A stretch of DNA of 64,000 nt from Escherichia coli O157:H7 (GCF_013167455.1 NZ_CP038328.1), one strand, 5' to 3'. Shown: positions 1,242 to 31,463, counted from the first letter of the stretch. The notes: generated by a model not told the origin, from the letters alone. Numbers and translations: made by a program.

Positions 1242-1575
1242 TGAGCGTCCCTCTGTTAAGGCAGGTCTATCATGCCTGCGTCTGATTTACAAAACTTGAT
1301 GATTCTAATGCATAGAAGAAGAGAAAGTTAATAGCTTTTATTGTTAAAAAATACGTTTCGTTGGCGAGCGCAAAAAAATGCAGCAGTGAAAGCTAAAAAT
1401 GGTCATAAATACGCCAGTTTGCCGTGCATCAGGGAAGAAACGAATATTTGAAATGCAACAAATAGAGCAAAGGGATAAAATAGCAAAAGCGTGATGAAAA
1501 TGTTATTTTCCGATGCCGCACTGACCCGCTACAATGTCAGATTACTGCCGTAAAGAAGTTTGAGGAAGCAAGACA

Positions 1576-1937: not shown

Positions 1938-1975
1938 CTGACGGATGCGAACGGGCATCCGTCAGTCCTTTCTCT
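1938..1975 (+). terminator. Terminator hairpin between convergent grxD and lhr
   Basis: Perfect 11-bp stem CTGACGGATGC / GCATCCGTCAG with 6-nt loop, followed by TCCTTTCTCT. Confidence 0.65.
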
Positions 1976-4900
1976 ATCCCCAATCCAGCCCTTGTGGCGA
2001 ACTTGAAAATCCCGCTTCACGCAGCAGCGTAAACATCGGCGTTTGCCAGACCGGTAGATCATTCACTTCTGTTAGCGTAAAGCGCAGCCGTGGTTCGCGA
2101 CGCAGTGCGGTAGTCAGCGCGTGGAAAACCTCTGGGGCGAGTAATTCCTCTTTTTCCTGCCAGACCAGCATTTTTTTGCCACCTTGCGCCAGATAGAGTA
2201 ACAATTTGCCGCCAGAAACGACCACCAGCGCACCCGCCCGACGCGTTGGTACCAGCGTTGCCGGATGTGCAGGCCAGGGCAGAAGATTTCCCCACACATT
2301 AGCCGGATCGTTGGCGGAGAGCGCCACTGGTGTATAGTGGCGCGTTTGCGCGGCTTGTGTCGCCAGGTCGCGCAAGCGGTCAATAGTCAGACGTTCAGCG
2401 AATTGCGCGCCACCCAGACCTTCTACAAAACGACCTCGCATAATTCGCCCGGAATCTTCCATACTTCGACAAAGCGTTTGCATCGATGGAAACCCGCCAG
2501 GGATATTTTCGGCTATCACCGCCTGACGACTGATGATGCCGTAGCGGTCGAGCATATTTTCCGCCAGCGCCAGCATCCTTTCGGTATCGTTTAGTGGCTC
2601 CACCTGCAATAACGACCAGCGTCCAGCCAGATTTGGTGTGTTGTAAGATACCCGCGGCGAGACGGGTTGTGCATAGACAGGACGCCCACGACGAGCCCGG
2701 TGACTGCGGCGAGTTGAGGTGCGTGCGTTGGAACTGCTGCGGGTGAGGGCGCGTAACGGTGCCCAAATATCGCTGGTGATGACGCCTTGCCAGACCAGCG
2801 CCCATAACGCCTCTTGCAGTGCCGAGGGATCAACCGATTCGCCGATTTTGTCGCGTATCCGTTGGCTGATTTGTTGTGCAAACCAGGCTCCTCCGTCAGC
2901 CAGAACAGCGACTATCGCTTGTTGCAGCGCCGAACGATTCGCCTGATCCGCTTCGGCGGGAGTGAACGATTCTGCAGCATATTCCTGTAGATGCAGTGCC
3001 ACCAGGCCGTCATCTTCACCCAGTTTTTTTTGCCCCGACCAGATAACCGCACCGGTTGCCAGTAATTCATCGAGCACTTCTGGCGAATAGTCGTGTACGC
3101 GGGCAGGCAAGATCTGGCTTTCCCAGAGTGAGGCGGGTAAGCCGACTCCGGCAAGCTGTTCGATCACCCGCATCACGCCATCCACCCCCTCATAAACGCC
3201 TGGCGATGTTGAGGCAAAGAGCGCCGGGCTACCATCGGTGGCGGGTAATACGCCCTGACGTTCCAGCAGCAATCGCGCATAGGTCGTGGCTGCAACGGGA
3301 CGCGTCGCTTCTCTGGCGGCTTGCAGCGAGCGCAAACGCAGACGACGAAATACTTCATCGCTCACCCAGATGTCTTGTTGCAGATTCATCACCAGACCCT
3401 GTTCGCGCAGTTGCTGAAGCTGCTCTTCGACAATGGCAATACCGAGACTAAACTCATGAGCCAGTTGTTCAGCCGTGACCAGAGCATGAGCCCGGAGATA
3501 GCGTAGAAAGAGGTCGCGAAGCGGGTAACTGACTCTATGCAAATAAATCTCTGGCAGTGACTCTGGTAATCGTACGCCGAGGGCATCGCGCAGCCTGGCG
3601 GCATCATCCATACAGGCAAGACGCTCCTGTCCACTAATCATCGTCGGGAAGATGCGTTTTACTGTAAGAAGATTTTCCAGATACGAGGCAATCTCTTCAC
3701 TGCTGCCTGTATGCCGTTGCGCCAGGTCTTCAACGGTCATTGGCCCCAGTTCGCGCAGCAGGTCGAACAATCCTTCTTCACCTTTCGCTCTTCTGCCAGG
3801 AGCCAGTCGTTGCAACTCTTCTTCCACCTGGCGAATGACCTGCGGGTCGAGTAATTCCCCCGGATCGACCTGTCCGAGTAGATTGCGCAGTAACTCGCTG
3901 TCCAGCGACAGTACGGATGCCCGGCGTTCTGCCAGCGGGGCGTCGCTCTGGTACATAAATTCCGCGACATAGCCGAACAATAAACTTGTGGCGAAAGGCG
4001 AGGGCGTAGTAGTCGTTACATCGGATATTTGAATTTCGCCTCCGTTCAGGCGACGCATCAAACGTTCCAGTGCGGGAAGATCATAAACATCTTGCAGACA
4101 TTCGCGTAGGGTTTCGAGAATGGCCGGAAAATCCGGATATCCCTGAGCGATTTCCAGCAACTGACTGGCGCGCAGCCGTTGTTGCCAAAGCGGGGTGCGA
4201 TGGCCCGGCGTGCGGCCCGGCATTAATAATGCCCGCGCGGCGCATTCGCGAAAACGGGCGGCGAAAAGTGCCGAACTGCCTACCGCCTCGCGGACAATTT
4301 GCAGCAACTTTTCTGGTTCAAACAAAAAAATCGCGGCGTCGGGCAATTTACCATCAGTGTCAGGAATGCGCGCAACAATGCCGTCATCACTGGCGACCAC
4401 AGACGCGTCAGCGCCCCAAAGCGCATGTATTCGCCCGGCAATCGCCAGCGCCCAGGGTTCATGCACCCGTCTTCCATAGGGAGAGTGCAAAATAATACGC
4501 CAATCGCCAATTTCATCACGGCACCGTTCGAGGACCAGATGACGACTCCCCGGAACAATACCCGTCGCGTTGCGCTGCTCGTCAATCAACCCCTGAATAT
4601 TGGCGATCGTATTTTCTTCAGCCAGCCACGGGGGAATAGTCCCGGAAAAGAACGCTCCATCCGCCAGCAAATGAAGAAAATCGCCGATCATCTCGCCTAA
4701 TTCAGCCGGACGTCCGTTACCTTCACCACGCCAGAAGGGGAGCCGGGCAGAACGACCCGGAGCAGGAGTCACAATCACCTGATCGCGGGTGATTTGCTGG
4801 ATCCGCCATGAGGTTGCGCCGAGAGTGATAATATCGTTCACCCGCGACTCATATACCATCTCCTCATCCAGTTCACCCACCCGTCGCGAACCGGCCTGTT

Positions 4901-6590
4901 CTTCCCCTTCGGGTAATAACACGCTATACATGCCACGATCCGGAATGGTGCCGCCGCTGGTAACCGCCAACAGCTGAGCGCCAGGTCGGGCGGTCAATAT
5001 CCCGGTCTCCCTGTTCCAGACCAGTTTGGGGCGAAAAGCAGAAAAATCGCCAGAGGGATAGCGTCCGGAAAGCATATCCAGCGTGGCGTCAAAAACACGT
5101 CTTGGCAGATCTTTCCACGGTGCGGCACGGCGTACGCGGGAGTACCATTCGTCTACCTGTAATGCATCCATCGCCGCGGCGGCAACGGTGTGCTGCGCAA
5201 GGACGTCGAGTGGATTATGCGGAGGTGTCAGGTTTTCCAGCCTGCCTGCGAACATACACTCTACAATGACTGCGGAATCGACTAAGTCACGCCTGGTTCG
5301 GGGGAAAAAAAGCCCTTTGGAGATACCTCCTATCTGGTGTCCGGCACGTCCAATGCGTTGTAACCCACTGGCAACAGAAAGCGGCGTTGCCACCTGAATC
5401 ACCAGCTCCACAGCGCCCATATCAATCCCCAGTTCGAGACTGGAAGTTGCGACCACGCAGCGTAACTCACCCGATTTCAGCGCCTGCTCGGTGATTGCTC
5501 GTTGTTCTTTAGAGACGGAGCCGTGGTGTGAGCGGGCAATAAAAACGTCGCTACTTTGTACACGGTTAGAGGTTGCGCCAGAGGTCGACTCGAAATGGGC
5601 CGCATCAGCGGCGATAGACGGGGAACGCTGTAAGCGTGCGGCGTAAAGCTCATTTAATCGTGCCGTCAGTTTTTCCGCCAGCCCCCGCGAATTAGTAAAG
5701 ACAATGGTCGAGCGATGGCGCAACACTTCATCAAGGATACCCGTTTCAATATATGGCCAGATGGAGCCTTCCCGGCCGGCATGGCTGTCTTCGCCAGTGC
5801 CGCTGGCGACCGATGAGACATCATCCATATTGGCGACTGGTACGACAATCCGTATCTGCGGATGACGCATTGCGGGCGGGTTGACTACCGTAACCGGGCG
5901 ATCGCCACCAAGAAATGCTGCCACATCGCTGGCTGAGCGCACAGTGGCAGAAAGGCCAATTCGCTGTGCTGAGGTGTGGAGCAGCGCATCGAGCCGCTCC
6001 AGACTTAACGCCAGATGCGCACCACGTTTACTTCCCGCTACCGCGTGGACTTCATCAATAATTACCGTTTCGACGCCGCGTAGCGTTTCGCGCGCGCGGG
6101 AGGTCAGCATCAGATAGAGTGATTCGGGTGTGGTGATCAGAATATCCGGCGGATTACGGGTGAGTTTGCTGCGTTCCTGTGCAGGCGTATCGCCAGTACG
6201 GATCCCCACGCGAAGATTGACTTCCGTTTCGCCGCGCCGCCGCCGTTCATCGGCAATACCCTTCAACGGGATCTGCAAGTTGCGCTGAACGTCGGTGCCC
6301 AGGGCTTTTATCGGTGAAATATAGAGGATGCGTGAGGTTTTACGTTTATGCGCCTCGCGGGTATCTTCGCCGCCTTCGCGGAAGAGTCGATCGAGGGCGT
6401 AGAGAAATGCTGCCAGCGTTTTCCCGGAGCCAGTCGGTGCAATCACCAGCGCATGTTCGCCTCGCGCCGCCACATGCCAGGTTTGCGACTGGACAGCGGT
6501 CGGCTGTTTAAAGGCGCGAAGAAACCAGTCGCGGGTCGCCGGTGAAAACACGTCCGGCAGGGGCGATGAAGGGTTTGGATTATCTGCCAT
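1974..6590 (-). CDS. lhr: ATP-dependent helicase Lhr (large helicase-related protein), 1538 aa
   Basis: ORF track 1538 aa; Walker A (APTGSGKT) and DEVH motifs near N-terminus; length matches recalled E. coli Lhr. Confidence 0.9.
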   Translation of the reverse strand: MADNPNPSSPLPDVFSPATRDWFLRAFKQPTAVQSQTWHVAARGEHALVIAPTGSGKTLAAFLYALDRLFREGGEDTREAHKRKTSRILYISPIKALGTDVQRNLQIPLKGIADERRRRGETEVNLRVGIRTGDTPAQERSKLTRNPPDILITTPESLYLMLTSRARETLRGVETVIIDEVHAVAGSKRGAHLALSLERLDALLHTSAQRIGLSATVRSASDVAAFLGGDRPVTVVNPPAMRHPQIRIVVPVANMDDVSSVASGTGEDSHAGREGSIWPYIETGILDEVLRHRSTIVFTNSRGLAEKLTARLNELYAARLQRSPSIAADAAHFESTSGATSNRVQSSDVFIARSHHGSVSKEQRAITEQALKSGELRCVVATSSLELGIDMGAVELVIQVATPLSVASGLQRIGRAGHQIGGISKGLFFPRTRRDLVDSAVIVECMFAGRLENLTPPHNPLDVLAQHTVAAAAMDALQVDEWYSRVRRAAPWKDLPRRVFDATLDMLSGRYPSGDFSAFRPKLVWNRETGILTARPGAQLLAVTSGGTIPDRGMYSVLLPEGEEQAGSRRVGELDEEMVYESRVNDIITLGATSWRIQQITRDQVIVTPAPGRSARLPFWRGEGNGRPAELGEMIGDFLHLLADGAFFSGTIPPWLAEENTIANIQGLIDEQRNATGIVPGSRHLVLERCRDEIGDWRIILHSPYGRRVHEPWALAIAGRIHALWGADASVVASDDGIVARIPDTDGKLPDAAIFLFEPEKLLQIVREAVGSSALFAARFRECAARALLMPGRTPGHRTPLWQQRLRASQLLEIAQGYPDFPAILETLRECLQDVYDLPALERLMRRLNGGEIQISDVTTTTPSPFATSLLFGYVAEFMYQSDAPLAERRASVLSLDSELLRNLLGQVDPGELLDPQVIRQVEEELQRLAPGRRAKGEEGLFDLLRELGPMTVEDLAQRHTGSSEEIASYLENLLTVKRIFPTMISGQERLACMDDAARLRDALGVRLPESLPEIYLHRVSYPLRDLFLRYLRAHALVTAEQLAHEFSLGIAIVEEQLQQLREQGLVMNLQQDIWVSDEVFRRLRLRSLQAAREATRPVAATTYARLLLERQGVLPATDGSPALFASTSPGVYEGVDGVMRVIEQLAGVGLPASLWESQILPARVHDYSPEVLDELLATGAVIWSGQKKLGEDDGLVALHLQEYAAESFTPAEADQANRSALQQAIVAVLADGGAWFAQQISQRIRDKIGESVDPSALQEALWALVWQGVITSDIWAPLRALTRSSSNARTSTRRSHRARRGRPVYAQPVSPRVSYNTPNLAGRWSLLQVEPLNDTERMLALAENMLDRYGIISRQAVIAENIPGGFPSMQTLCRSMEDSGRIMRGRFVEGLGGAQFAERLTIDRLRDLATQAAQTRHYTPVALSANDPANVWGNLLPWPAHPATLVPTRRAGALVVVSGGKLLLYLAQGGKKMLVWQEKEELLAPEVFHALTTALRREPRLRFTLTEVNDLPVWQTPMFTLLREAGFSSSPQGLDWG

Positions 6591-22907: not shown

Positions 22908-23491
22908 TTTTACCTCTTTTTTTACATCCCATATTAACGGGGGTGCTTTCTCGCGTTATGTCTAAAAAACATACGCGCAATTGTTATAGTGGGAGGGGAA
23001 ACGGCAGGTAATGTTCACTATCTTGCACTTTCAGACAAGTCCTTTGTAATAATCTGTTACATATAACTGAGGCGGGGAATTCAACCATTCCGGGAAATGT
23101 TATCCAGCGTTAAATTTTTCAAAAAACGTAACGGCAGATTTTTTCACTGCATTGAGAGGGGGATGATGGCTTGACGGCGATATGTTCTGCTATTTAGCGT
23201 TTTTCCTAGTGAGATAGTCCAGTTTCTTAAAAATAGCCAGTGTAATGTTTTGCAGGTCAATATTTGTTGCGTGTGTAAATTTAAATGATTTTAACCTGAT
23301 TCTTGCAATGTTTTTACATTGCCACAGCATCGTGATCTTGATCACTAATGAATAGAAAATTTCGCTATTAAAAAAACAATTAACCTGCATTTTTGGTTAT
23401 CCGCAAACGGATTACCTGATGATAACGCTAAGCAATGGCATCATTGACGTTAAAAAGATGTTTTAAAAGAGGATAAAGAAAGGTTATCAAT

Positions 23492-30823: not shown

Positions 30824-31095
30824 AAAAGGTCCATAAAATAATTAATACCAAAGGGGTAGGTATTATTAGTGATGATAAAATTTCACCAAAAGTGAACGCT
30901 TGTGTTATTACAATAATAAGAATGCGCTGATGGCAAATATTCAGGGATGAAAAACTGCTATGAAAAGAGTAACGCGCTTTACTATCCCTGACAATCACCA
31001 ACAACACCGAACAAGATAATAAATTCCTGGTTTAATATCCGACAAGTGAAAACATGCACCCTGACGGGCAGCATGTCGCTCTACAAGCGCAGGGC

Positions 31096-31221
31096 TTACT
31101 TGTGTTGTACCGTAGTACTCTGTTCAGGTGGCTGATAGTTGTCAATGTGACTCGCCACGCCAAGAAGAATGACTGAAACGACAAGAACGATCCAACCTGT
31201 TAATTCAATAAGACGATTCAT
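31096..31221 (-). CDS. blr: Small membrane protein Blr (beta-lactam resistance / divisome-associated), 41 aa
   Basis: Manual translation of reverse strand: MNRLIELTGWIVLVVSVILLGVASHIDNYQPPEQSTTVQHK*; single TM helix; position between cnu and ydgJ matches recalled K-12 blr. Below the ORF-track length cutoff. Confidence 0.75.
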   Translation of the reverse strand: MNRLIELTGWIVLVVSVILLGVASHIDNYQPPEQSTTVQHK

Positions 31222-31463
31222 TACAACTCACATCTCTGTTGATTGATCCATTAACTTCAGGGGGTAAATGTTACTTAGCAATAATAGCTCCAGCAAGATT
31301 TTTACTGAGGTTTTTGCGATATTTAGCTTTTGTCGTTGGAAAAATCGCTATTTTTTTGACTTAAGTTAAACAACATCCCTTATTGCTGGCAGGTTATTAA
31401 ACTGTTGAGCGAGGGTAAAGGATAGTGTCAAATAGCCATCATACTTCAATGAGAGGCAATGAC

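Follow-up and report, generated by a model that had tools for sequence, protein, structure and literature searches.

Are two very short reading frames on the reverse strand of an Escherichia coli O157:H7 chromosome genuine genes, and if so, what might their products do? The stretch of DNA analyzed here (the window) is 64,000 nucleotides long, and an earlier note, made from its raw sequence, had read the two frames as blr (41 aa) and ydgU (27 aa), that is, as single-transmembrane (TM) microproteins located at the positions of small-protein genes known from K-12. Reverse-strand translation returns both frames with exactly the coordinates and sequences quoted in that note. Each begins with ATG; blr is translated as MNRLIELTGWIVLVVSVILLGVASHIDNYQPPEQSTTVQHK and ydgU as MVGRYRFEFILIILILCALIAARFYLS.

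31096..31221, reverse strand: blr coding sequence, O157-type allele T37/T38 (RefSeq CDS at the same coordinates; HMMs; omega; hydropathy)
63742..63825, reverse strand: ydgU (samT) coding sequence (RefSeq CDS at the same coordinates; HMMs; synteny; omega; PMC13425233)

The proposed identities are borne out by the annotation of related genomes. In the RefSeq annotation of NZ_CP022689.1, blr is WP_001296096.1, 'division septum protein Blr', and ydgU is a 27-aa 'hypothetical protein', WP_000233090.1; the two entries map exactly to 31096-31221 and 63742-63825, respectively. The window differs from this genome by one indel in lhr, which shifts the coordinates below 3023, plus three SNPs. Because this sole indel affects positions below 3023 only, transferred coordinates above 3023 are exact. 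In K-12 MG1655, blr is b4409, between ydgJ and cnu, and ydgU is b4601, between asr and ydgD, each with the same neighborhood as in the window. The stretches around both genes are 100% identical to O157:H7-type strains, and the neighborhoods of both loci were matched in more than 5,400 of 5,426 complete E. coli genomes. The claim that the ORF track had missed the two genes needs qualifying. Both are shorter than 60 aa and are dropped from the default listing, but this reflects the length cut-off only, and the public records annotate both; an ORF listing with a 20-aa minimum does show the blr ORF. In O157-type RefSeq genomes the product of ydgU is still labeled 'hypothetical protein'.

A side observation from the comparison with NZ_CP022689.1 concerns lhr itself. 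This gene is intact in the window (1974-6590, reverse strand, 1538 aa) and is annotated as frameshifted in that otherwise near-identical genome. The one-base indel near 3023 accounts for 2216 apparent mismatches between the two sequences, and may reflect either a true divergence of the strains or an error in the sequence of NZ_CP022689.1.

Both products are recognized by family profiles that match from end to end. With Blr, the NCBIfam equivalog NF033231 (small_Blr; cut-off 40) gives 91.3 bits over model positions 1-40 of 40, and Pfam PF24673 (Blr_divisome; cut-off 27) gives 87.9 bits over positions 1-41 of 41. For YdgU, the scores are 70.3 bits with NF052476 (small_YdgU; cut-off 24) and 74.5 bits with NF011341 (cut-off 66), and both matches extend over positions 1-27 of 27. 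Hydropathy analysis bears out the description as single-TM proteins, with one hydrophobic segment in each. The segment in Blr comprises residues 7-23 (KD 2.58), and its flanking charges are near neutral. That in YdgU comprises residues 10-26 (KD 2.73) and is preceded by the N-terminal MVGRYR with two arginines; YdgU is thus little more than one TM helix. A PDB sequence search yielded 0 solved structures containing Blr or YdgU. From its status as an RseP substrate, together with the hydropathy, the topology of Blr is probably N-in/C-out, with the short N-terminus in the cytoplasm; its HIDNYQPP motif would then be periplasmic and juxtamembrane.

The conservation of blr was assessed at the levels of family, locus and codon. 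A protein search identified 97 relatives of Blr, which carry this name in Escherichia, Shigella, Salmonella, Citrobacter, Enterobacter, Lelliottia, Leclercia and Intestinirhabdus, and a profile search that covered 1.84 billion representatives exhaustively returned 33 clusters only. With so few clusters, and with the remotest members of the profile search found in Klebsiella, Kluyvera and Superficieibacter, the family is small and confined to the Enterobacteriaceae. The alignment of 22 homologues contains sixteen invariant positions, among them H25, I26, D27, N28, Y29, Q30, P31 and P32 just past the TM segment. In the window protein, the single TM segment is thus followed by the family motif, HIDNYQ(P/S)P. 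HHIDNYQ is retained in Klebsiella and Kluyvera, and the variant in Superficieibacter is HIDRYEPP. The protein encoded in the window has the same locus and length as K-12 Blr and is identical to it at 39 of 41 residues, including the TM segment and HIDNYQPP; the differences, A37T and S38T, fall in the variable C-terminal tail (…QSTTVQHK versus …QSASVQHK in K-12).

In the window, blr is situated between the divergent ydgJ and cnu/ydgT, and the gene order add, ydgJ, blr, cnu, ydgK, rsxA is unchanged in Enterobacter, S. enterica arizonae, Lelliottia, C. freundii, C. koseri and E. fergusonii. In the alignment of the ydgJ-cnu intergenic region, 52% of the columns are invariant within the blr ORF, versus 14% upstream and 8% downstream. 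Relative to the window sequence, pS ranges from 0.66 to 0.86 and pN from 0.09 to 0.17, and omega is about 0.08-0.09 in the two comparisons with unsaturated dS. Variable columns are distributed over codon positions 1, 2 and 3 as 15, 7 and 36, and all five alternative frames are stopped in 8 of 8 sequences. This substitution pattern has the signature of a protein-coding sequence, and not that of a conserved RNA or DNA element.

For ydgU, we anchored the sampling on the neighboring gene ydgD in 100,044 species genomes, which avoids a bias toward carriers of ydgU, and obtained 21 loci. An ORF of the same family, with 26-27 codons, is present in 20 of them, about 100-230 nt upstream of ydgD and on the same strand. 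These loci include five Escherichia species, Citrobacter, Enterobacter, Phytobacter, Pseudescherichia, Erwinia, Izhakiella and Dickeya, and their common protein pattern is M-x-x-R/H-Y-x-F-E-(x10)-C-(x6)-F-x. Wherever ydgU is present (20 loci), asr is found upstream of it. The locus from Tenebrionibacter intestinalis (L022, 2200-2500) has neither asr nor ydgU, and retains ydgD with its proximal upstream sequence; this natural case shows that asr and ydgU come and go together, without regard to ydgD.

63918..64000, reverse strand: 3' end of asr, clipped by the window edge; upstream gene of the asr-ydgU operon (PMC13425233, PMC11429745)
63826..63840, reverse strand: Shine-Dalgarno (SD) sequence of ydgU, GGAGGG, with the GGAGG core 5 nt ahead of the ATG

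In the window, the ydgU ATG follows the asr stop codon by 92 nt, on the same strand and with its own SD. The K-12 gene for YdgU/SamT has the same length and position, following asr by 92-93 nt and preceding ydgD by 99 nt, and no difference between the two proteins is detectable. Where dS is measurable, omega for ydgU is 0.16-0.26, and the comparison with E. albertii shows five synonymous and no nonsynonymous changes. Each alternative frame at the locus is broken in at least half of 12 sequences. Of the 20 other loci, 17 have GGAG(G) at the equivalent position; two from Dickeya have the GG-rich variant GGGG, and in the enterobacterial locus LSJC7 the GGAG is about 5 nt further upstream. The duplex of the ydgU SD with the anti-SD is, at -10.0 kcal/mol, the strongest of 223 candidates in the window. 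The earlier note had named a lack of conservation in related genomes as what would refute its reading; both blr and ydgU are clearly kept in related genera under purifying selection.

Could such frames nevertheless be chance openings in intergenic DNA, whose resemblance to K-12 is one of position only? Short ORFs are plentiful: the six frames of the window contain 729 ORFs of 20-59 codons, and its 37 intergenic gaps contain 223 start-stop combinations of 10-59 codons. That is, the existence of an ORF of this size is no more than is expected by chance, and the SD of blr, for its part, is weak (duplex energy -2.9 kcal/mol, rank 52 of 223). What does exceed chance is the conservation, the codon-periodic substitution and the HMM scores, the last being put at two to three times the cut-off for the curated models. 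The frames are kept across many genera under strong purifying selection, with variation at third positions and with the alternative frames broken, and the literature adds ribosome profiling, tagging and genetics. The codon-level conservation of ydgU and blr refutes the notion of chance frames, to which we assign a probability close to nil. It might also be argued that the conservation is non-coding and the peptides incidental, the DNA being constrained as an sRNA, as the 5' leader of cnu in the case of blr, or as a leader or attenuator ORF for ydgD in the case of ydgU. The arrangement of the genes is compatible with this view, in that ydgU always precedes ydgD at the short distance given above, with no terminator found between the two, and blr precedes cnu by 272 nt in the same orientation and has a clear terminator in E. 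coli only. However, codon-periodic substitutions and a low dN/dS indicate a constraint on amino acids rather than on RNA structure. A scan of the whole window against Rfam returned 0 families, and an explanation by a known RNA was rejected on this ground. In addition, samT, as ydgU is now called, restores feedback when provided alone from an ectopic locus, and the tagged peptide binds RstB (PMC13425233). Lastly, the single locus that lacks asr-ydgU has kept both ydgD and the promoter-proximal sequence of this gene; hence ydgD does not need ydgU in cis. We consider a non-coding origin of the conservation very unlikely, and hold that selection acts on the two proteins.

A narrower doubt concerns the length of Blr, namely whether the true protein is a form of 45 or 51 aa that starts at an upstream in-frame ATG, in which case the 41-aa ORF would be a truncated call. 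This was examined in the leader of the gene.

31222..31296, reverse strand: blr leader, promoter-like region (intergenic alignment; upstream translations)

In K-12, the frame is indeed open upstream (MDQSREMWAV-MNRL…), TGG being found there in place of the TGA of the window, and extends to 51 or 66 aa. For many homologues, the annotated length is 45-53 aa, with longer starts in Salmonella, Citrobacter, Klebsiella and Enterobacter. Moreover, the position of the E. coli Met1 is ATT or ATC in Enterobacter and Lelliottia and encodes Phe or Leu in Klebsiella, Kluyvera and Superficieibacter, and all five genera have an ATG four codons upstream of it. In the window, by contrast, the leader contains a 7-codon upstream frame, MDQSTEM* (31222-31254, reverse strand), followed by VV and then by MNRL. 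This frame ends as an in-frame ATG-TGA 'start-stop', with the ATG four and the TGA three codons upstream of the blr ATG (a gap of 6 nt). Owing to this in-frame TGA just upstream, a longer Blr is excluded for the window, and the 41-aa protein is the sole possible product. The same holds for E. fergusonii, which has the E. coli-type start only, with several stops upstream. In addition, the NCBIfam equivalog model covers no more than the 41-aa core, and the E. coli Blr reported by Wong (2000), as cited in a later paper, has 41 residues. Thus, a true Blr of more than 41 aa is in our view extremely unlikely, and we retain the 41-aa protein. Of the 5,426 E. coli genomes, 396 contain an exact copy of the O157-type leader and 3,085 one of the K-12 leader. 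Because the Met1 codon is replaced in other genera and an ATG is present four codons upstream, the site of initiation seems to have moved by four codons between lineages, around a constant 41-aa core. This difference is a nuance of annotation, and does not challenge the reality of the gene.

Further upstream of blr, a TTGCTG-N17-TAACAT pair, with TTGCyG variants, is conserved in 8 sequences from 6 genera, and on account of this cross-genus conservation we propose it as a candidate promoter-like element. A scan for consensus promoters found nothing convincing for blr or ydgU, and left this conserved pair unflagged. Past the blr stop codon the window contains one further element.

31052..31078, reverse strand: terminator-like hairpin past the blr stop, GACAUGCUGCCCGUCAGGGUGCAUGUU, then a U-rich tail

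The dG of this hairpin is -15.1 in the window (z -4.3) and -18.1 in K-12, and the consensus scan matches it in part. Only the two sequences from E. coli show it clearly. In Lelliottia, the hairpin 3' of blr is another one (dG -19.2), with a U-poor tail (2 U), and no hairpin 3' of blr was found in the other genera examined.

The region between asr and ydgU contains a hairpin that is conserved in every sequence analyzed.

63844..63872, reverse strand: 12-bp hairpin, CGGUGCUAAGCG-GGUAA-CGUUUAGCACCG, then CCUUUAGCG; an asr intrinsic-terminator-like element

This hairpin is GC-rich (dG -20.0, z -6.1) and directly abuts the ribosome-binding site of ydgU. An equivalent hairpin is present in 12 of 12 other sequences (13 of 13 with the window), and its stems differ between genera and yet stay complementary. 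Shuffle z-scores range from -3.8 to -6.2 in all sequences but one, that from Phytobacter, in which the automated pick ran into the U-tract (z -1.8); the core stem and a U8 tract are plain in that sequence. In the 10 sequences in which the pick isolated the core (the window and nine others), the core hairpin ends 14-21 nt before the ydgU ATG. The quality of the U-tract is variable: it is degenerate in Escherichia (3-4 U, CCUUUAGCG) and consists of U5-U8 in Citrobacter amalonaticus, Enterobacter and Phytobacter.

We infer that this conserved, terminator-like hairpin, which adjoins the SD of samT, is the intrinsic terminator of asr, and that samT would be expressed by read-through. Reporter fusions have shown that the region just upstream of ydgU has negligible promoter activity, and that the asr promoter drives ydgU (PMC11429745). 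Read-through would fit these reporter data, although the U-tract of Escherichia, being degenerate, counts against it and what the papers show is co-regulation only; the terminator is not discussed in the main text of the SamT paper (PMC13425233). A bolder and more tentative idea, which we regard as possible but somewhat doubtful, is that the asr terminator, kept by compensatory change in every genus examined, acts as a valve that sets the Asr:SamT ratio through regulated read-through. If so, this valve would balance positive against negative feedback on RstB-RstA, and the decayed U-tract of Escherichia would be a lineage-specific retuning of it.

Taken together, these results lead us to conclude, with a probability of about 0.93, that blr and samT are true genes of the E. 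coli core genome, each transcribed independently and encoding a small membrane protein, with published functions and with the mechanisms outlined below. They are real, conserved genes that had been annotated and characterized before, and this conclusion does not go beyond published knowledge. Mildly new are only the conserved juxtaposition of terminator and SD ahead of samT and the lineage-specific start of blr. All of the functional work was carried out in K-12, and the window is of O157 background.

The small ORF now called samT was found 93 bp downstream of asr and was validated by tagging (PMC13425233, PMC11429745). It is co-regulated with asr, and GFP-YdgU is located at the membrane (PMC11429745). 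At pH 4.4, ribosome footprints on ydgU increase 2^9.2-fold, the third-largest increase after asr and cadA (PMC10746267). The name samT was given to ydgU in a 2026 NAR paper, which shows that samT alone in trans, at an ectopic locus, restores negative feedback on Pasr at pH 5, and that this feedback is abolished in rstA D52A and D52E mutants and in kinase-dead or null mutants of rstB (PMC13425233). In two-hybrid assays, T18-SamT interacts strongly with T25-RstB, to an extent comparable to MgrB and PhoQ (PMC13425233). Both members of this two-component system are intact within the window.

51419..52720, reverse strand: rstB, sensor kinase (ORF and annotation; context only), 11 kb from ydgU
52724..53443, reverse strand: rstA, response regulator that activates asr-ydgU transcription (PMC13425233); context only

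In the mechanism that we favor for SamT, ydgU is transcribed from the RstA-dependent asr promoter, presumably by read-through of the asr terminator hairpin, and the message is translated massively at acid pH. SamT would then bind the acid-sensing RstB and limit phosphotransfer from RstB to RstA, i.e., it would exert a negative feedback in the style of MgrB and PhoQ.

The PhoQ feedback inhibitor MgrB has 47 aa and includes a functional periplasmic domain, whereas hardly any of the shorter SamT extends beyond the membrane. SamT also shares an operon with the positive modulator Asr. The two also differ in their targets, PhoQ versus RstB, and no sequence relationship between them has been reported or was found. 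What they have in common is that each is a single-TM peptide, induced by a two-component system, that binds and damps its own sensor kinase (PMC13425233).

The mechanism proposed for Blr is the weaker of the two, and rests on secondary citations. Wong (2000) reportedly described Blr as an 'intergenic' membrane protein of 41 residues that affects the susceptibility to peptidoglycan-synthesis inhibitors, and Karimova (2012) is said to have identified it as a component of the division machinery that associates with the divisome. Later papers describe Blr as a septal divisome component and likewise mention its effect on this susceptibility (PMC10470546, PMC7648144, PMC12350097). It may help to stabilize the divisome under stress, and belongs to the class I substrates of the intramembrane protease RseP (PMC10470546). 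Of 12 proteins tested, 7 were two-hybrid partners of Blr, and false positives may be among them (PMC7648144); one further paper mentions Blr solely as the source of a plasmid (PMC13334617). According to this mechanism, Blr would be a 41-aa single-pass inner-membrane peptide, with the TM segment at residues 7-23 followed by the invariant HIDNYQPP; located at the septum with divisome proteins, it would steady division under envelope stress, and its loss would result in a higher susceptibility to peptidoglycan-synthesis inhibitors. YmgF and DrpB resemble Blr in being small, dispensable inner-membrane proteins whose link to the septal ring consists mainly of localization and two-hybrid data (PMC7648144). 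Unlike Blr, which is single-pass and found in Enterobacteriaceae only, they are larger (YmgF has 72 aa), and they are unrelated to it in sequence. For O157:H7, the relevance of the two genes is that they touch on acid-stress signaling and on envelope and beta-lactam tolerance.

Does the window contain other genes of this size? In the equivalent region of the K-12 annotation there are exactly three CDSs of less than 60 aa, namely ydgU, mdtU and blr. Two of these three known genes were named in the earlier note, from which mdtU was absent.

61893..61994, forward strand: mdtU, 33 aa, upstream ORF of mdtJI (PMC10746267)

In O157, RefSeq calls mdtU as a 56-aa 'protein YdgV' from the GTG at 61824 (61824-61994), and the ATG at 61893 gives the K-12 product; that is, the start call is inconsistent between records. 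The recovery of two true sub-60-aa genes from raw sequence, without tools, provides a calibration point, and indicates that the note's small-protein calls can be trusted here. The suggestion to screen short ORFs by their SD sequences did not prove useful, for such a screen performs poorly: among the 223 candidates, ydgU ranks 1st, but mdtU only 38th and blr, as noted, 52nd. Several other short intergenic ORFs have a high predicted affinity for the anti-SD (-7.2 to -9.0 kcal/mol), and none of these four is annotated in K-12 or O157.

1272-1331, forward strand: candidate high-SD short intergenic ORF
23011-23049, forward strand: candidate high-SD short intergenic ORF
56133-56201, reverse strand: candidate high-SD short intergenic ORF
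48903-48944, forward strand: candidate high-SD short intergenic ORF

The best unannotated SD candidate, 31268-31369 on the forward strand (-8.8 kcal/mol), was rejected, for stops or frameshifts interrupt it in each of the six species other than E. coli. Cross-genus conservation at the codon level, on the other hand, separated real from spurious short ORFs cleanly. A hydropathy filter (17 residues, KD ≥ 2.5) was selective as well, and kept 3 of the 729 short ORFs: ydgU, blr and an ORF upstream of uidA.

39551..39634, forward strand: unannotated 27-codon GTG ORF, VGIAVFGFLIAVSVLFISISLPWVSHR; the most hydrophobic of the 729; 76 nt upstream of uidA

No SD was found for this ORF. Four divergent E. 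coli alleles, that of K-12 among them, do not differ in its sequence (100% identity), while the uidR-proximal half of the intergenic region varies. Because the ORF lies in the regulatory region of uidA, this invariance is uninformative, and the frame is probably fortuitous, in T-rich DNA. As a separate observation on this region, uidA is split in the window into two ORFs of 237 aa and 370 aa (39711-41524, forward strand), and uidC is truncated (42933-43961, forward strand); both features match frameshifts annotated in the O157 reference. O157:H7 is typically beta-glucuronidase-negative, with which the split uidA agrees.
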